The notes below the pieces were generated by a model. The model was not told the origin of the DNA. It did not search any database and saw only the letters and a list, made by a program, of their open reading frames with translations. Below, piece after piece: positions 181-63,607 of a stretch of DNA of 64,000 nt. The DNA is from Candidatus Staskawiczbacteria bacterium. Lineage in GTDB: Bacteria; Patescibacteriota; Minisyncoccia; Minisyncoccales; Staskawiczbacteraceae. Position numbers and translations under genes: made by a program. The stretch lies in the NCBI GenBank assembly GCA_041661545.1, contig JBAZUH010000001.1:83877-147876 (forward strand). The letters are read 5' to 3'. Position 1 is the first letter of the stretch; each line of letters opens with the position of its first letter.

Positions 181-382
181 ATAGGATAAATTGACAGCAA
201 CTTGAAAACATAGCTAGTGAGTACAGTTTCTTGCGCCTCGCCTTGCGGGGCATAGAAAACTGTATTCACTACGAATTCAGTAAGCCATCTGTAGGCTTTG
301 ATTAGCTTAACGTCGACTCGCCGAAAGGCAATAAAGTTTTTATCGACGTTGGTTAAACAGAAAGACCAAACCATTAAATATC
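181..382 (+). ncRNA. Structured 5' leader RNA, copy A (unclassified family, homologous to 9427-9629)
   Basis: About 200 nt homologous to the second copy. Helices 217-230/255-269, 282-286/294-298 and 307-316/343-356 plus a GAAA-loop hairpin 320-329. Two helices covary between copies. Confidence 0.6.
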
Positions 383-8201: not shown

Positions 8202-9311
8202 ATGGCAAATAATTTAGTACTTTATCGTAAATACCGGCCGCAGAGGTTTGAAGAAGTGATTGGGCAAGAGCACGTTGTTCAAACTTTAACCAATTCTATA
8301 AAAGGAAATAACATTTCTCATGCTTATTTACTTTCGGGGCCAAGAGGAAGCGGAAAAACAACTATTGCAAGATTATTTGCCAAAGCAATTAACTGTGAAA
8401 ACAGAAAAGACGGTCAATTTGAGCCATGTGACAAATGCGCCTCATGTTTAGAAATTATGGCCTCAAGGTCTATGGATTTAGTTGAAATTGATGCTGCTTC
8501 GCATACTGGTGTTGATGATGTAAGGCAGTTGATAGAAGGCATTAAATTTGCACCAGTAAAATCTAAATATAAAATATTTATAATTGATGAATGTCATCAA
8601 TTATCAAAATCAGCTGCCAACGCTTTATTAAAAACATTAGAAGAGCCACCAGCTCATGCAGTATTTATTTTAGCTACAACCGAATCTCATAAAATGATTC
8701 CCACAATTTTATCAAGATGCCAAAAGTTTGATTTTAAAAGATTGCATGTTTTAGAAATTATAAAAAAATTAGAATTTATTTCTAAAAAAGAAAATGTAAA
8801 GTTTGAAGATTCGGCGTTATCTTTAATTGCTTTAAATTCTAGGGGGTCATTTCGCGATGCAGAATCTTTATTAGACGAGTGTTTAAGTTTTGCGGGTGAC
8901 AAGGGTAATATAAAAACAGACGATATAAAAGAATTATTAGGCATTGTTGAAGTTGCAGAAATTTCTAAATTTGTTGATTTTATTATTTCTAAAAATACAA
9001 AAGGAGCAATAGAATTTTTAAATTTGATAATTGAAAATGGCGTTGATTTACAAGAATTTGCTAAAACTTTAGTTTTTTATTTAAGGCAAGAATTGCTTTT
9101 AAAAATAGATCCTAATTTTTTAAATTTACAAAACTCTGGGCTTTCTAATCAAGAATTAGAAAAAATGAAAACACAAATTGCAAACTTAACTCAAAAAGAT
9201 TTACAAGAAATGCTAGAGTTTTTTATAGATGCCGAAAACAAACTTAAATATTCAGCAATTCCGCAACTTCCTTTAGAGCTTGCAATTATAAATGCAATAA
9301 ATAAAAATTAA
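8202..9311 (+). CDS. dnaX: DNA polymerase III gamma/tau subunit (short form)
   Basis: YRPQRF, Walker A GPRGSGKTT, zinc module CxxC, DEC(H) box. Confidence 0.9.
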   Translation: MANNLVLYRKYRPQRFEEVIGQEHVVQTLTNSIKGNNISHAYLLSGPRGSGKTTIARLFAKAINCENRKDGQFEPCDKCASCLEIMASRSMDLVEIDAASHTGVDDVRQLIEGIKFAPVKSKYKIFIIDECHQLSKSAANALLKTLEEPPAHAVFILATTESHKMIPTILSRCQKFDFKRLHVLEIIKKLEFISKKENVKFEDSALSLIALNSRGSFRDAESLLDECLSFAGDKGNIKTDDIKELLGIVEVAEISKFVDFIISKNTKGAIEFLNLIIENGVDLQEFAKTLVFYLRQELLLKIDPNFLNLQNSGLSNQELEKMKTQIANLTQKDLQEMLEFFIDAENKLKYSAIPQLPLELAIINAINKN

Positions 9312-9314
9312 ACC

Positions 9315-9341
9315 AAAAAACCGCTGTTGAGGCGGTTTTTT
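9315..9341 (+). terminator. dnaX terminator, left copy of a duplicated terminator
   Basis: aaaaaaccgctgttgaggcggtttttt, nearly identical to 10363-10389. Confidence 0.75.
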
Positions 9342-9391
9342 GTTGCACAAAACAAACAATGGGCCCTTAGGCTGAAACGGGCGGCTATGAC

Positions 9392-9420
9392 TTGACAAGC
9401 CTACTTAAATATGCTATAAT
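9392..9420 (+). promoter_or_regulatory. Consensus sigma70-type promoter of GC-rich cassette B
   Basis: TTGACA 9392-9397, 17-nt spacer, TGcTATAAT 9412-9420. Confidence 0.75.
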
Positions 9421-9426
9421 GAATAT

Positions 9427-9629
9427 ATAGGATAAATTGACAGCAATTTGAAAATATACTAAGTGAATGCAGGTTTTTGCGTATTGCCCAGTGCAGTGCA
9501 TAGCAACCTGTATTCACTACGAATTCAGGGAGCTACCGTAAGCTCTGATTAATTTAACGTCGAATAGCCGAAAGGCATTGGAAAACTTTTCCGACGTTGG
9601 TTAAAGCGGAAATACAGAACAACCGAATC
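9427..9629 (+). ncRNA. Structured 5' leader RNA, copy B
   Basis: Homologous to 181-382. Helices 9463-9474/9506-9517, 9530-9534/9541-9545 and 9554-9562/9592-9604. Confidence 0.6.
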
Positions 9630-10190
9630 ATGAAAATATCGTTTAAATACGAGCAAACCCGTAGCAATATCGTTCGTTTTGCGCTTCGCAATGGGGCGGA
9701 TTCGAGCACGATGTTGAAAATCAGTGGCCTCGTTATCCCGCAGATTGCGGAGGCGGACTTCGCCTCCCTCGAAATCTGCGAGGGGGACGAAACCACGGTG
9801 TGGGACGCCCGTGCGGGATTGGTAGACCTGCTCGCCAGCAGGTGGGGTCTCTGCCAGAGTCAATGGGGCCGGCGAGTGGAGATTTCCACGAGCTGTGGGA
9901 AGCTCGTCGGGTCGACTTCGTCAGCCGAGGATATTTCCATTGATGCCATTGGTGACGTGGTTATCCGCGGATTTCGGCCGGAAACCTACGAGGGGGCGTA
10001 CAACGCCTACCTCGAAGGAACTGGCTGGTCCCTCGAGAAGACCGAAGGGCATTGGGAAATCGAGAAGGTGAAGTCCACTCTCGGCGAATTCTCATCGTTG
10101 GAGGACTACGAGCAAGCCCGTGTCAACGACGGCATGGGTTGCCGGTATCTGGAGCTTGAGGCTCCTGAGCCCGAGAAGATGCCCGCCTGA
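9630..10190 (+). CDS. Orphan acidic 186-aa protein, GC-rich cargo ORF of cassette B
   Basis: ATG at 9630. G-rich first and GC-rich third codon positions (GAG, GCC, GGC, CTC codons). No recognisable motif. Confidence 0.6.
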   Translation: MKISFKYEQTRSNIVRFALRNGADSSTMLKISGLVIPQIAEADFASLEICEGDETTVWDARAGLVDLLASRWGLCQSQWGRRVEISTSCGKLVGSTSSAEDISIDAIGDVVIRGFRPETYEGAYNAYLEGTGWSLEKTEGHWEIEKVKSTLGEFSSLEDYEQARVNDGMGCRYLELEAPEPEKMPA

Positions 10191-10325
10191 GTTCGTCTTT
10201 TTCCGGCTTTATGAAAAGCCGGCATGGGTATTGAGATCGTATCTCGAATACCTCGGGTCCTAACCCCGCGTGTGGCAATACGCCATTAATGGAGAACACG
10301 ATAAAGTTCTCCCCATTATTGAGCT
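10191..10325 (+). promoter_or_regulatory. 3' hairpin series ending in cassette-end module, copy 3
   Basis: Hairpins 10203-10222, 10229-10252 and 10291-10312, then CCATTATTGAGCT (10313-10325). Collinear with 635-760. Confidence 0.55.
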
Positions 10326-10361
10326 AATAACAATTTGTTTTTATTTCATATTGGGTAAATT

Positions 10362-10389
10362 AAAAAAACCGCCGTTGAGGCGGTTTTTT
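10362..10389 (+). terminator. Cassette B terminator, right copy of the duplicated terminator
   Basis: aaaaaaaccgccgttgaggcggtttttt. Confidence 0.75.
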
Positions 10390-10511
10390 GGTTGGCTCAC
10401 TTGGCTAAATAATTTTAAGTAAAAAGTTTATTTAACAGAAAAAAGTTATCCACATACTTGTGTGTTCTAAAAAGGTTATAATAATATAATAATATTTACC
10501 TTTTTAAATTT

Positions 10512-15630: not shown

Positions 15631-15666
15631 AAAAAAAGAGCCCCAGTAGTAGAGATTACTATGGGG
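15631..15666 (-). terminator. Terminator of GC-rich cassette C
   Basis: Minus-strand hairpin ccccatagtaat...tactactgggg followed by a U-run. Confidence 0.6.
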
Positions 15667-15686
15667 TAAACGCAAAAGCGCATAAA

Positions 15687-16058
15687 TCAGTGGACGCCGT
15701 TGCCCCAGGGAGTCTGCAGGCAGGCTTTGCGCCTGGCTTTCATTTTTGCCACTTGCCTTTTGATGGCGGTGACTGCGGGCCTTTCGCGCTGGAGAAGAAA
15801 GGTGTGTGGATGGATTTGTCCCTTGCCTTCTTGGCTCCAAATGCAGACGTCAATTTTCAAAGTGTGCCGGCTGTTCCAGAAATTCTGCGCTTCTTTGAAT
15901 GAGCACTCCCACAGGTAGTGGCGTTTGCCATCGGAGCATCTCTGCCAGAAGCCATCGATGACATTGGGGAGATTCTTTGCAATAACTTCGTTGGCGTGCG
16001 CTACATCTTTGCCGGTTGGTTCGATAAACCATCTATGAAACCTTGTTGTGTTGGCCAT
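15687..16058 (-). CDS. Orphan 123-aa protein, GC-rich cassette C
   Basis: ATG at 16058 downstream of minus-strand promoter TTGACA (16131-16126)-N17-TATTGT. Coding-like codon pattern, no motif recognised. Confidence 0.5.
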   Translation of the reverse strand: MANTTRFHRWFIEPTGKDVAHANEVIAKNLPNVIDGFWQRCSDGKRHYLWECSFKEAQNFWNSRHTLKIDVCIWSQEGKGQIHPHTFLLQRERPAVTAIKRQVAKMKARRKACLQTPWGNGVH

Positions 16059-16206
16059 AATTGTCGGGGTTGGTTGTGAATGTTCAAGGGGGAGCAAGGT
16101 TAACAATATATCATTTTTAGGTAATTGTCAACCTGTTTTAATGCTATATTTCACTATTGATTCGCTTGCAAATTAGGAGTATAATTAATTAATATAATAT
16201 AGATAT

Positions 16207-56561: not shown

Positions 56562-57254
56562 ATGGATTTTGAAATTTTAGAAAAAAAATTAGGAGTAAAA
56601 TTTAATGATAAGAATCTTTTAAAGCATGCTTTTACGCATAGGTCTTATTTAAATGAAAATCCTGATTTAAAATTAGAGCATAATGAAAGGTTAGAATTTT
56701 TAGGAGATGCTGTTATGGAATTAATTGTAACAGAGCATCTTTATAAAGAATTTCCAGAAAAAGCAGAAGGAGATTTAACTAATTGGAGAGCAGCCTTGGT
56801 TAATGCAAAAATGTTAACTAGTGTTGCAAAAGAATTAGAATTTAATGACTTTCTTTTGCTTTCTAAGGGTGAATCTAAAGAAATGGGCAAAGCCAGAGAT
56901 TATATATTAGCCAACACCTTTGAAGCATTTTTAGGAGCATATTATTTAGATTCTGGATTTAAACCGTGTGATGAATTTATAAGAAAGAATTTATTAAAAA
57001 ATTTAGCAGAAATTATAAGAGATGGTTCTTATAAAGATGCTAAATCAAAGTTTCAGGAAGAAGCTCAAGAAAGAGTTTCTATAACACCAAATTATAAAGT
57101 TATAAAAGAGTCTGGCCCCGATCACGAAAAAAGTTTTGTAGTGGGAGTATATTTAGAAGAAGAATTGGTTGCCGAAGGCATGGGGTCTTCAAAGCGTGAA
57201 GCAGAATCTGCGGCAGCAGAGTTGGCCCTAGAAGTAAAAAAATGGGGAAAATAA
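56562..57254 (+). CDS. rnc: Ribonuclease III
   Basis: NERLEFLGDAV signature and a dsRBD C-terminus. Confidence 0.95.
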   Translation: MDFEILEKKLGVKFNDKNLLKHAFTHRSYLNENPDLKLEHNERLEFLGDAVMELIVTEHLYKEFPEKAEGDLTNWRAALVNAKMLTSVAKELEFNDFLLLSKGESKEMGKARDYILANTFEAFLGAYYLDSGFKPCDEFIRKNLLKNLAEIIRDGSYKDAKSKFQEEAQERVSITPNYKVIKESGPDHEKSFVVGVYLEEELVAEGMGSSKREAESAAAELALEVKKWGK

Positions 57255-57289: not shown

Positions 57290-57772
57290 ATGCTTACAAT
57301 TAGATTAACAAGAAAAGGAAAAAAGAATCAGCCATTTTTTAGAGTGGTTGTAATAGATAAAAGAAGTTCAACAAGAGGTGGAAGATCTGTTGAAGATTTA
57401 GGTTATGTTGACCCTTTAAAAAAGAGAAGAAGTTTTAATGCAGAAAGAATTAAATATTGGTTATCTAAAGGAGCACAAGCATCGGCTACCATGCATAATC
57501 TTTTAGTTTCTGAAAAAATTATTGAAGGAGAAAAAATTCATGTTTCTAATTTAAGTAAAAAAGCAAAAGAAAAAATTAAAGTAGCAGCCGAAGCAAAAGT
57601 TGCAGAAGCAGAAGCTACAAAGGCTAAAGCACAAAAAGAAGCCGAAGATAAGATAGCAGCCGAAAAAGCTGAAGCCGAGAAGTCAGCAGAACCAGTAGCA
57701 GAAACACCAGTTGAGGAAGCAAAGCCCGAAGAAGTAGCATCAGAAACTGCACCAGAAACACCAGCGGAATAA
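57290..57772 (+). CDS. rpsP: Ribosomal protein S16 with Ala/Glu/Lys-rich C-terminal tail
   Basis: MLTIRLTRKGKKNQPFFRVVV. Confidence 0.9.
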   Translation: MLTIRLTRKGKKNQPFFRVVVIDKRSSTRGGRSVEDLGYVDPLKKRRSFNAERIKYWLSKGAQASATMHNLLVSEKIIEGEKIHVSNLSKKAKEKIKVAAEAKVAEAEATKAKAQKEAEDKIAAEKAEAEKSAEPVAETPVEEAKPEEVASETAPETPAE

Positions 57773-57839: not shown

Positions 57840-57868
57840 TTGACAAGGCAGTTAAGATATGCTATAAT
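57840..57868 (+). promoter_or_regulatory. Consensus promoter of a small RNA gene
   Basis: TTGACA 57840-57845, 17-nt spacer, TGcTATAAT 57860-57868. Confidence 0.7.
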
Positions 57869-57874
57869 TAAGTA

Positions 57875-58035
57875 TATTGAGATAAGCTATAAATTAAGGG
57901 CGTTTAGGTGATTTCTCTTTATTGAGCGACCTCCCGGCTCCGGCTAGGAGACTCGAGATATAAAGTTCGGCAAATGGAAAATTTTTATAATTTTTCGCAA
58001 GTCTCGGACAAGAGAGATCTCCCAAGCGCCCTTTT
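57875..58035 (+). ncRNA. Candidate ~160-nt sRNA (6S-like rod with A/U-rich centre)
   Basis: 22-bp closing helix 57898-57919/58010-58031 (with G-U pairs) followed by UUUU. Internal hairpin 57926-57953. No ORF. Confidence 0.5.
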
Positions 58036-58202
58036 AAATTTTGACCCTTTACTTTGCGGACATGTTAAGATATTGATGAAATTGAATTTTCTCACTGACA
58101 TACGATTACTCCGCAAAGCGAAGGGTTGACATATTGTAAAAAAAGAATAGAATTAAGCTAATTAAAGGTCGCAGAATGATAATAAGTTTAAATGATAAAG
58201 CA

Positions 58203-62800: not shown

Positions 62801-62829
62801 TTGACATAGCATTATAACTATGCTATGAT
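62801..62829 (+). promoter_or_regulatory. Near-consensus promoter of GC-rich cassette F
   Basis: TTGACA 62801-62806, 17-nt spacer, TGcTATGAT 62821-62829. Confidence 0.7.
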
Positions 62830-62925
62830 ATATTTATGGACCTTGAGATACAAATCGTTTTTGGCGCAGGTAACTGCAGGCGATTTTATTGATTGGTCAG
62901 AAATCACACACACCACCAAGTTACC

Positions 62926-63480
62926 ATGAATAACGTATCAAGATGGATATTGATCAGTTTGTCGGCCGGTTTAGTTGCCGTTATAGGCAGCGGCTGGATT
63001 CACAAAAACCTCCAAGATACGGAAGTGAGGGCCTATACTCAGGCCTCGCTCCGAGAGACCGCCAACATCCTCGTGAAGAAAGCCAAGCCGTACATGATGG
63101 ACGTGGATTACTACGTGTACTCCATTAGGCTCCGCGAGCTGGAGAACCGCCCGATATTTGATCGGGTGGATGCTGAAATTCTCCGTGTCGGTGACAGCTA
63201 TGAGGATGTCGCCGCCGACGTCGTGGCGCAACTGCGACACGCCGGGTTCAGCGACACTGAGATTGAGGAGCTCTGGAGTGCCCAGTGGAAGGTTCGGCTC
63301 ATGTCCACCTGCTGGCAGGTGGATGAGTTCAAGGGGATCGTTTTGGACGGTGACAAGCCGGCCAAGAGGTGCACCCTGGAGGAGCTTTGTCGGCTTCAGT
63401 CGGCTGAATTTCTCCCTGCTAAAGCAGAACTCGACCGACTCCTCGCGGAGGCGAAGATGCCCGTCGTGCTGGTTGAATAA
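62926..63480 (+). CDS. Orphan 184-aa membrane-anchored protein, GC-rich cassette F
   Basis: ATG at 62926, N-terminal TM WILISLSAGLVAVIGSGWI, strongly GC-rich third codon positions, no motif recognised. Confidence 0.6.
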   Translation: MNNVSRWILISLSAGLVAVIGSGWIHKNLQDTEVRAYTQASLRETANILVKKAKPYMMDVDYYVYSIRLRELENRPIFDRVDAEILRVGDSYEDVAADVVAQLRHAGFSDTEIEELWSAQWKVRLMSTCWQVDEFKGIVLDGDKPAKRCTLEELCRLQSAEFLPAKAELDRLLAEAKMPVVLVE

Positions 63481-63520
63481 GCCGGTTCATGCGCTGGGGA
63501 GAAGTCCTCCTCAGCGCCCG

Positions 63521-63556
63521 CCCCTTAGTAAAACTCTTTACTATTGGGGCTTTTTT
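63521..63556 (+). terminator. Cassette F terminator
   Basis: cccc...gggg extended hairpin plus T-run, preceded by a second hairpin at 63491-63517. Confidence 0.65.
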
Positions 63557-63607
63557 GTTGCTTATTTTTGCGGAAAAATATAAAATGAATAAATAAATAG
63601 GGCAGTT

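Follow-up and report, generated by a model that had tools for sequence, protein, structure and literature searches.

Two homologous folded leaders, A (positions 181–382, + strand) and B (9427–9629, + strand), lie in a 64,000-nt window of a Candidatus Staskawiczbacteria genome, the window being the whole stretch of DNA analysed. Judged by their sequences, both are copies of one structured 5′ UTR, which is unclassified and maintained by selection. The explanation we tentatively prefer is that the leader is a cis-acting 5′-UTR module, controlling stability, translation or factor binding, within autonomous cassettes that would be exchanged horizontally. The host is a CPR MAG of 35% GC, represented here by a 738-kb contig, and the window is core housekeeping DNA, with recR, dnaB, cysS, dnaX, purA, pheS and rplL/tRNA genes as neighbours.

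Two leader copies, a third relative and their common fold

Promoter A (146–174, + strand) combines TTGACA, a 17-nt spacer and a TG-extended TATAAT box. Promoter B (9392–9420, + strand) has the same TTGACA/17 nt/TATAAT layout with a TG extension, and both match the consensus at 12 of 12 positions. A preliminary description of this DNA had proposed two consensus promoters, each heading a homologous leader, which holds: the leaders are ~85% identical from the −10 box to ~25 nt upstream of the start codons. Both cassettes begin directly 3′ of the preceding gene's terminator, and upstream of cassette A a bidirectional terminator (80–116) closes the previous unit. All of the shared blocks quoted in that description are present where it placed them. 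The 20-mer ATAGGATAAATTGACAGCAA (181–200 and 9427–9446; chance, 0.04) and the 21-mer CTGTATTCACTACGAATTCAG (260–280 and 9508–9528; chance, 0) each occur exactly twice in the 64 kb, and the copies further share GCCGAAAGGC (320–329 in A, 9567–9576 in B) and CGACGTTGGTTAA (344–356 in A, 9592–9604 in B). The start codons (GTG 383, ATG 9630) follow GGTTAAA by 25–26 nt and have no Shine–Dalgarno (SD) sequence, as had been described; this absence is usual in the window and not special to A and B, because just 9 of the 47 long window ORFs carry an SD-like motif. The sequence suggests that leaderless mRNAs, or SD-independent translation, are widespread in this host.

Both leaders fold into the same series of domains. 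In leader A (+ strand), a 5′ single-stranded block with CUUGAAA precedes P1 (216–270), P2 (277–301, core 282–298) and P3 (302–356), which encloses the P3a hairpin (320–329); a CA-rich linker (357–382) completes the leader. The equivalent elements of leader B (+ strand) are P1 at 9462–9518, P2 at 9525–9548, P3 at 9549–9604, P3a at 9567–9576 and the linker at 9605–9629. P1 is a ~24-bp duplex, P3a is a GCC-GAAA-GGC hairpin inside P3 in both copies, and the predicted folds of A and B leave the start regions free. Fold stability z-scores are −4.3 (A) and −3.9 (B), each leader beating all 200 of its dinucleotide shuffles.

RNAalifold analysis of A and B together returns 48 pairs in three domains, five of them with compensatory double changes. 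The five comprise the compensatory changes listed in the preliminary description and three more in apical P1. Six A/B pairs carry G–C/G–U or A–U/G–U changes, and the many G–U pairs of the joint fold are consistent with + strand RNA. A and B differ at 15 of 96 stem nucleotides and at 23 of 82 unpaired columns, with every pair preserved. Simulated stem changes (200,000 runs with the same transition and transversion numbers) broke a mean of 8 pairs, and none of the runs left every pair intact; the test is biased in that the structure was derived from the same two sequences, and the margin is large. The perfectly conserved unpaired blocks of A and B, in copies ~15% diverged, may partly reflect recent duplication.

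In line with the check proposed with the preliminary description, a covariance model (R1) was searched; it scores 181 bits for leader A and 173 bits for leader B, and its matches are limited to these two and one diverged homologue beyond the window. This third copy, on another Patescibacteria contig (L003/L004), lies upstream of an ORF B homologue and has TATGCTATAAT, a CCTTGAAA motif, a long P1, a 5-bp P2 (GUGAG/CUCAC) and a P3 formed by AAGAUUGA/UCAAUCUU that encloses the CGCCGAAAGGCAAU hairpin. Its −10 box and GAAA hairpin are 144 nt apart, against 146 nt in the window copies. The architecture is that of A and B with different helix sequences (stem identity ~50%). An alignment of A, B and L004 contains 46 pairs, in which 93% of cells are paired compared with 34–45% when partners are slid by 1–3 columns, and 15 pairs have changed on both sides; none of 500 shuffles reached the observed values. 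Because three distinct leader sequences are known, this covariation lies beyond proper statistical testing, and its support for the fold is suggestive, short of statistical rigour. Read from these alignments, with a structure derived from the sequences under test and three distinct sequences to compare, the leader fold is under selection. Conservation between A/B and L004 extends to the P3a hairpin with its flanks (75–88%) and the 5′ motif (~60%), and to nothing else; J1/2 and J2/3 are 38% and 18% identical (near random) in this comparison with one diverged homologue, and the unpaired TACGAATTCAG, identical in A and B, is lost in L004.

Several further structural candidates were rejected. A pseudoknot between the 5′ UUGAAA and the U-rich internal loop of P3 performed no better than shuffles in two of the three sequences. 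A hammerhead-like CUGAUNA core, sought by eye, is absent from copy B and likewise from L004. A 56-aa gene called within the L004 leader would make a leader peptide; it was dismissed because A and B have stop codons or no start there and hold no counterpart.

The earlier suggestion that the leader belongs to no known RNA family agrees with our Rfam 15 covariance scans, which gave no family match. A gathering-score scan of the whole window retrieved five tRNAs and nothing else, and E-value scans (E ≤ 10) of 1–1700 and 9300–10450 gave chance-level matches, far under gathering scores and none common to A and B. Across the window and the scanned collections the family comprises three distinct sequences (A, B and L003/L004), with A and B the only R1 matches inside the window. 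Exact leader blocks had no match in viral contigs, and a promoter–gap–hairpin pattern found 67 matches in metagenome contigs, none of which fits R1. The 14-mer CGCCGAAAGGCAAT lacks specificity at its length and gave at least 120 matches, which are attributable to chance. Protein-guided scans for ORF B in metagenome, genome and viral contigs recovered the known L001 contig alone, blastn against phages and plasmids gave no match, and a literature search returned nothing relevant. Of strain variants that might lack the cassette, the contigs available were L193 and L194, both from the same strain.

Cargo genes and the modules that surround them

Cassette A carries two orphan ORFs on the + strand. 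A1 (383–634, annotated WC711_00415) encodes 83 aa from a GTG start (GC 0.56, GC3 0.60) and has one weak relative, P0008 (54% identity over 41 aa). The central motif of A1, GDVV..YLGGNGILQVEHRKALG, shows 54% identity to a 70-aa protein, and further matches fall on ten tandem repeats of a 791-aa predicted protein, which itself resembles a translated DNA tandem repeat. A2 (965–1354, WC711_00420; 129 aa, GC3 0.58) belongs to the second unit (787–1354) of the predicted A transcript.

ORF B (9630–10190, + strand; 186 aa, ATG start, GC3 0.70) has homologues in other Patescibacteria that are 53–63% identical. Differences between ORF B and its L001 homologue are distributed 47/33/113 over the three codon positions; this third-position excess indicates coding constraint and, by this sequence criterion, ORF B is a genuine protein-coding gene. 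These homologues come from four short contigs whose gene neighbourhoods are unrelated (MgsA with dehydroquinase, HicAB, phosphoglycerate mutase), and every one has a TGCTATAAT-type promoter of its own, together with a TTGAAA motif and a long P1 hairpin. The leader would thus accompany its cassette from place to place. The predicted structure of the ORF B product was unusable (mean pLDDT 43).

No similarity was detected between the bodies of A1 and ORF B, in DNA or in the three forward reading frames, and neither has a Pfam, PHROG or PADLOC family. This cargo comparison and the fold agree with the preliminary description of the leader as non-coding, structured and in cis to unrelated genes. The composition of the cargoes is foreign, with GC3 of 0.58–0.70 in A1, A2, B and the ORF of cassette C (below) versus 0.14–0.38 in the other long ORFs of the window. 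In several window ORFs, a TATAAT box lies ~10 nt upstream of the start ATG (for example, 16207, 27454 and 47622).

Homology between the two cassettes resumes ~10 nt upstream of the stop codons (620–640 versus 10176–10196), and a post-ORF hairpin, TTTTCCGGCTTTTTGAAAATCCGGC (642–666, + strand), is common to cassette B (10199–10223) at 92% identity. The leader and this hairpin are shared and the ORF bodies are not, which suggests an exchange of bodies within one UTR frame; on the 5′ side this comparison is alignment-dependent. That A–B homology reaches a few codons into ORF B is probable, but depends on the alignment. In one alignment (357–400 versus 9605–9660), an ATT of A (373–375) stands opposite the ATG of B and is followed by a shared ATATCGT.

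The 3′ side of cassette A is built from repeats. A 47-nt element (740–786, + strand) recurs at 1557–1603, forming a TTGAGCTCTTAAATTTATTTGAGGGTTCA hairpin of 12–13 bp with G–U pairs; the two copies are 94% identical and close both the A1 and A2 units, and a weaker relative is present in the L001 3′ UTR. The second copy and a bidirectional terminator (together 1557–1640, + strand; terminator 1617–1640) would end the A transcript. A contig from an independent Logan assembly, L194, stops within the first 47-nt copy or just past it, as would fit an assembly break at a repeat. The A1–A2 spacer (787–964, + strand) is strongly structured (fold z = −7.7). Within it, a 24-bp hairpin (815–864, + strand) precedes A2, and its 3′ arm (850–864) is perfectly complementary to 945–958, adjoining the A2 ATG at 965. 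Alternative pairing of 850–864 could possibly gate A2 translation.

The 3′ UTR of cassette B (10191–10395, + strand; fold z = −4.6) contains the shared hairpin (10199–10223), more hairpins and a terminator (10363–10390, or 10371–10390 in a narrower delimitation). This terminator is 96% identical to that of dnaX (9315–9342), such that a ~42-bp imperfect direct repeat (9305–9345 and 10357–10395) flanks cassette B. Three readings of the repeat are conceivable: duplication of a target site, an att-like core, or a terminator borne by the cassette.

Two further cassettes resemble A and B in part. In cassette C (62801–63560, + strand), a TTGACA-17-TATGAT promoter and a CCTTGAGA motif are accompanied by a short P1-like hairpin, which has a UUUUUG bulge; the other parts are a CA-rich linker, the orphan ORF (62926–63480, GC3 0.69) and a terminator. 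Cassette D (15640–16131, − strand) has a promoter, a ~48-nt leader with CTTGAACA, a GC-rich orphan ORF (16058–15687, − strand) and a terminator homologous to that of C (CCCCWTAGTAA..TACTAYTGGGGCT). The leaders of C and D are CA-rich and have no SD, and neither ORF has a Pfam or PADLOC family. TGCTATRAT and YTTGARA together are common to A, B and C (three matches versus 0.07 expected by chance), and a P1 hairpin with a UUUUUG-type bulge is common to A, B, C, L001 and L004. Placement of the CGCCGAAAGGCAAU hairpin varies: A, B and L003/L004 carry it in the 5′ UTR, but L001 (with two copies) and L002 carry it in the 3′ UTR; one L001 copy lies inside a TTAACAT/ATGTTAA helix, much like P3. In the ORF B homologues of L001 (1640–1660) and L002 (660–680), the coding GGCACGCCGAAAGGCTGG (ARRKAG) nearly repeats the CGCCGAAAGGCAAT hairpin motif, which itself follows ~50–130 nt downstream in the 3′ UTRs of both; chance, duplication or selection on the motif within the ORF could account for the likeness. 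The genome may hold many such mini-genes. L194 1200–1450, which adjoins the window on the left (into 1–60), is GC-rich and contains a ~50-aa minus-strand ORF divergent from cassette A.

A stand-alone structured RNA of ~165 nt (57875–58040; 57840–58045 including its promoter, + strand) has a 12/12 promoter and the 5′ start motif AAGTATATTGAGATAAGC. It sits between rpsP (57290–57772) and a gene for a KH-domain protein, and its closing stem, GGGCGUUUAGG/CCCAAGCGCCC, leads into a U-run (fold z = −3.5). At E ≤ 10 it has no Rfam match, and it may be an unrecognised housekeeping RNA.

Candidate roles of the leader

As we picture it, each cassette would open with a consensus promoter and a folded leader, pass through an unstructured CA-rich linker into its GC-rich orphan ORF, and close with a hairpin-rich 3′ UTR and a terminator. 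Such cassettes would spread horizontally among Patescibacteria, their regulatory modules being traded by recombination. P1, P2 and P3/P3a would fold independently ahead of the unpaired CA-rich stretch that presents the start codon. The leader might then set mRNA stability or processing, a role we infer from the ~24-bp duplex of P1 and the RNase III gene encoded in the window (56715–57254). It might also keep the CA-rich, SD-less start region accessible and free of pairing with the GC-rich ORF, and the conserved CGCCGAAAGGCAAU hairpin could dock a trans-acting factor or make a tertiary contact. The leader lies on the same strand as its ORF, between promoter and ORF, is non-coding and has compensated helices, as in structured cis-acting 5′ UTRs generally; control of stability or translation would be the default assignment. 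Against this explanation, the window has no recombinase, transposase, reverse transcriptase or phage gene that could move the cassettes (no recombinase domain among ~45 long ORFs), and the structure was tested, with three distinct leader sequences, on the alignment it came from.

The preliminary description had spoken of a riboswitch or other cis-acting RNA. The cis-acting structured RNA stands; a riboswitch or sensor RNA, which would bind a small molecule or ion and switch expression of the downstream ORF, is unlikely. A conserved multi-helix leader that precedes unrelated genes, with unpaired blocks identical in A and B (for example, TACGAATTCAG) and no known RNA family to account for it, does invite that reading, but the same block is not kept in L004, where the junctions are 18–38% identical. 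Between P3 and the start codons of A and B we found no terminator-like site, no helix that would mask the start codon and no SD for a helix to sequester; SD-less starts are in any case the genome norm, and the single match to an attenuator terminator, in the P2 hairpin of copy B, has no equivalent in A or L004. No metabolic theme joins the cargoes, which are unrelated orphans, and the P3a module occurs in the 3′ UTR of other cassettes. Rather improbable, too, is processing of the leader into a trans-acting small RNA, or its doubling as one with the ORFs as incidental passengers. The same promoter type and 5′ start motif do head the stand-alone RNA at 57875–58040, and P1 is a plausible substrate for the RNase III encoded in the window; yet no terminator separates P3 from the start codons, and in L004 the leader is still joined to an ORF B homologue.

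P3 might instead be a DNA or single-stranded DNA recombination structure, its TTAAC...GTTAAA marking an integron attC-like or transposon-end cassette boundary. In A and B, P3 has boxes like RYYYAAC and GTTRRRY (GCTTAAC, GTTAAAC) with the ORF starting ~25 nt beyond, the ORF bodies seem swapped between shared flanks, the 47-nt repeat closes A1 and A2, and the ~42-bp direct repeat surrounds cassette B. L004 speaks against this, since its P3 (AAGATTGA/TCAATCTT) has no TTAAC/GTTAA boxes and keeps the pairing alone; several G–U pairs of P3 work in + strand RNA but mismatch in DNA of the other strand; and the GTTAAAG of copy B misfits GTTRRRY, which copy A fits. With no integrase or transposase in the window, and cassettes that are single or double units with their own promoters and not arrays, we consider a recombination site quite unlikely. 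That the leader is functionless, a recent segmental duplication whose structure is a by-product, would fit the ~85% identity of A and B and a family of three distinct sequences with no more copies found. The substitution pattern makes this highly improbable: 15 stem substitutions break no pair, an outcome matched by none of the 200,000 simulations, and L004 keeps the architecture despite a stem identity of ~50% and double-sided changes in 15 pairs.

A bolder proposal, to which we give little credence, would treat the leader, the CGCCGAAAGGCAAU hairpin, the 47-nt element and the terminators as an undescribed RNA 'frame' of Patescibacteria that packages horizontally acquired orphan genes and is read by a conserved trans-acting RNA-binding protein or nuclease, or else the leader as a new class of sensor RNA with the P1 internal loop and GAAA hairpin as its core. 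If true, the frame would be a dedicated mechanism for post-transcriptional control or exchange of foreign genes.

Known systems and significance

Phage morons are autonomous promoter–ORF–terminator units of atypical base composition that are inserted between resident genes. The cassettes are like morons in having their own promoter and terminator (as consensus matches) and a small ORF of atypical composition, and in being inserted among unrelated housekeeping genes, the site differing from genome to genome. They differ in residing in a bacterial chromosome with no phage genes nearby and no match in viral, phage or plasmid collections, and in possessing structured elements that do not define morons, namely a conserved leader of ~200 nt and modules in the 3′ UTR. 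Riboswitches, T-boxes and ribosomal-protein leaders share with our leader the form of a multi-helix, same-strand 5′ UTR with compensated helices directly upstream of a gene; unlike the cis-regulatory leaders of Rfam, it has no conserved junction core, expression platform or coherent gene set, and no Rfam match at E ≤ 10.

Integron attC cassettes provide another partial parallel, as here the ORF follows ~25 nt past an imperfect inverted repeat with AAC/GTT-type boxes, unrelated ORFs occupy one frame, and a repeat closes successive units. Unlike integron cassettes, the boxes are lost in the third copy, G–U pairs indicate RNA, and there are own promoters, no integrase and no arrays. 'Promoter propagation' describes homologous upstream regions, of mobile or duplicated kind, that precede non-homologous genes. 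The same promoter-proximal sequence and leader before unrelated genes in one genome fit this idea, whereas what the cassettes share here goes beyond a promoter and is mainly an RNA whose fold is under selection, along with a 3′ hairpin that also matches. Because the likeness to morons, riboswitches and attC sites is partial, we class the element as an unclassified structured cis-acting leader.

The regulatory RNA of CPR bacteria is almost unexplored, and this leader is a real, unclassified structured RNA from one of them. By itself it is a small orphan motif of putative function. Its context is of more use: a few foreign, GC-rich orphan genes are wrapped in long UTRs that are rich in hairpins and made of shared, exchangeable modules, in contrast to the other genes of this 35% GC genome, which are mostly without leaders and SD sites. 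Should the same arrangement recur throughout the genome and in Patescibacteria at large, it would offer a way into how reduced symbionts acquire and express foreign genes, and into the RNA elements that serve them in this.
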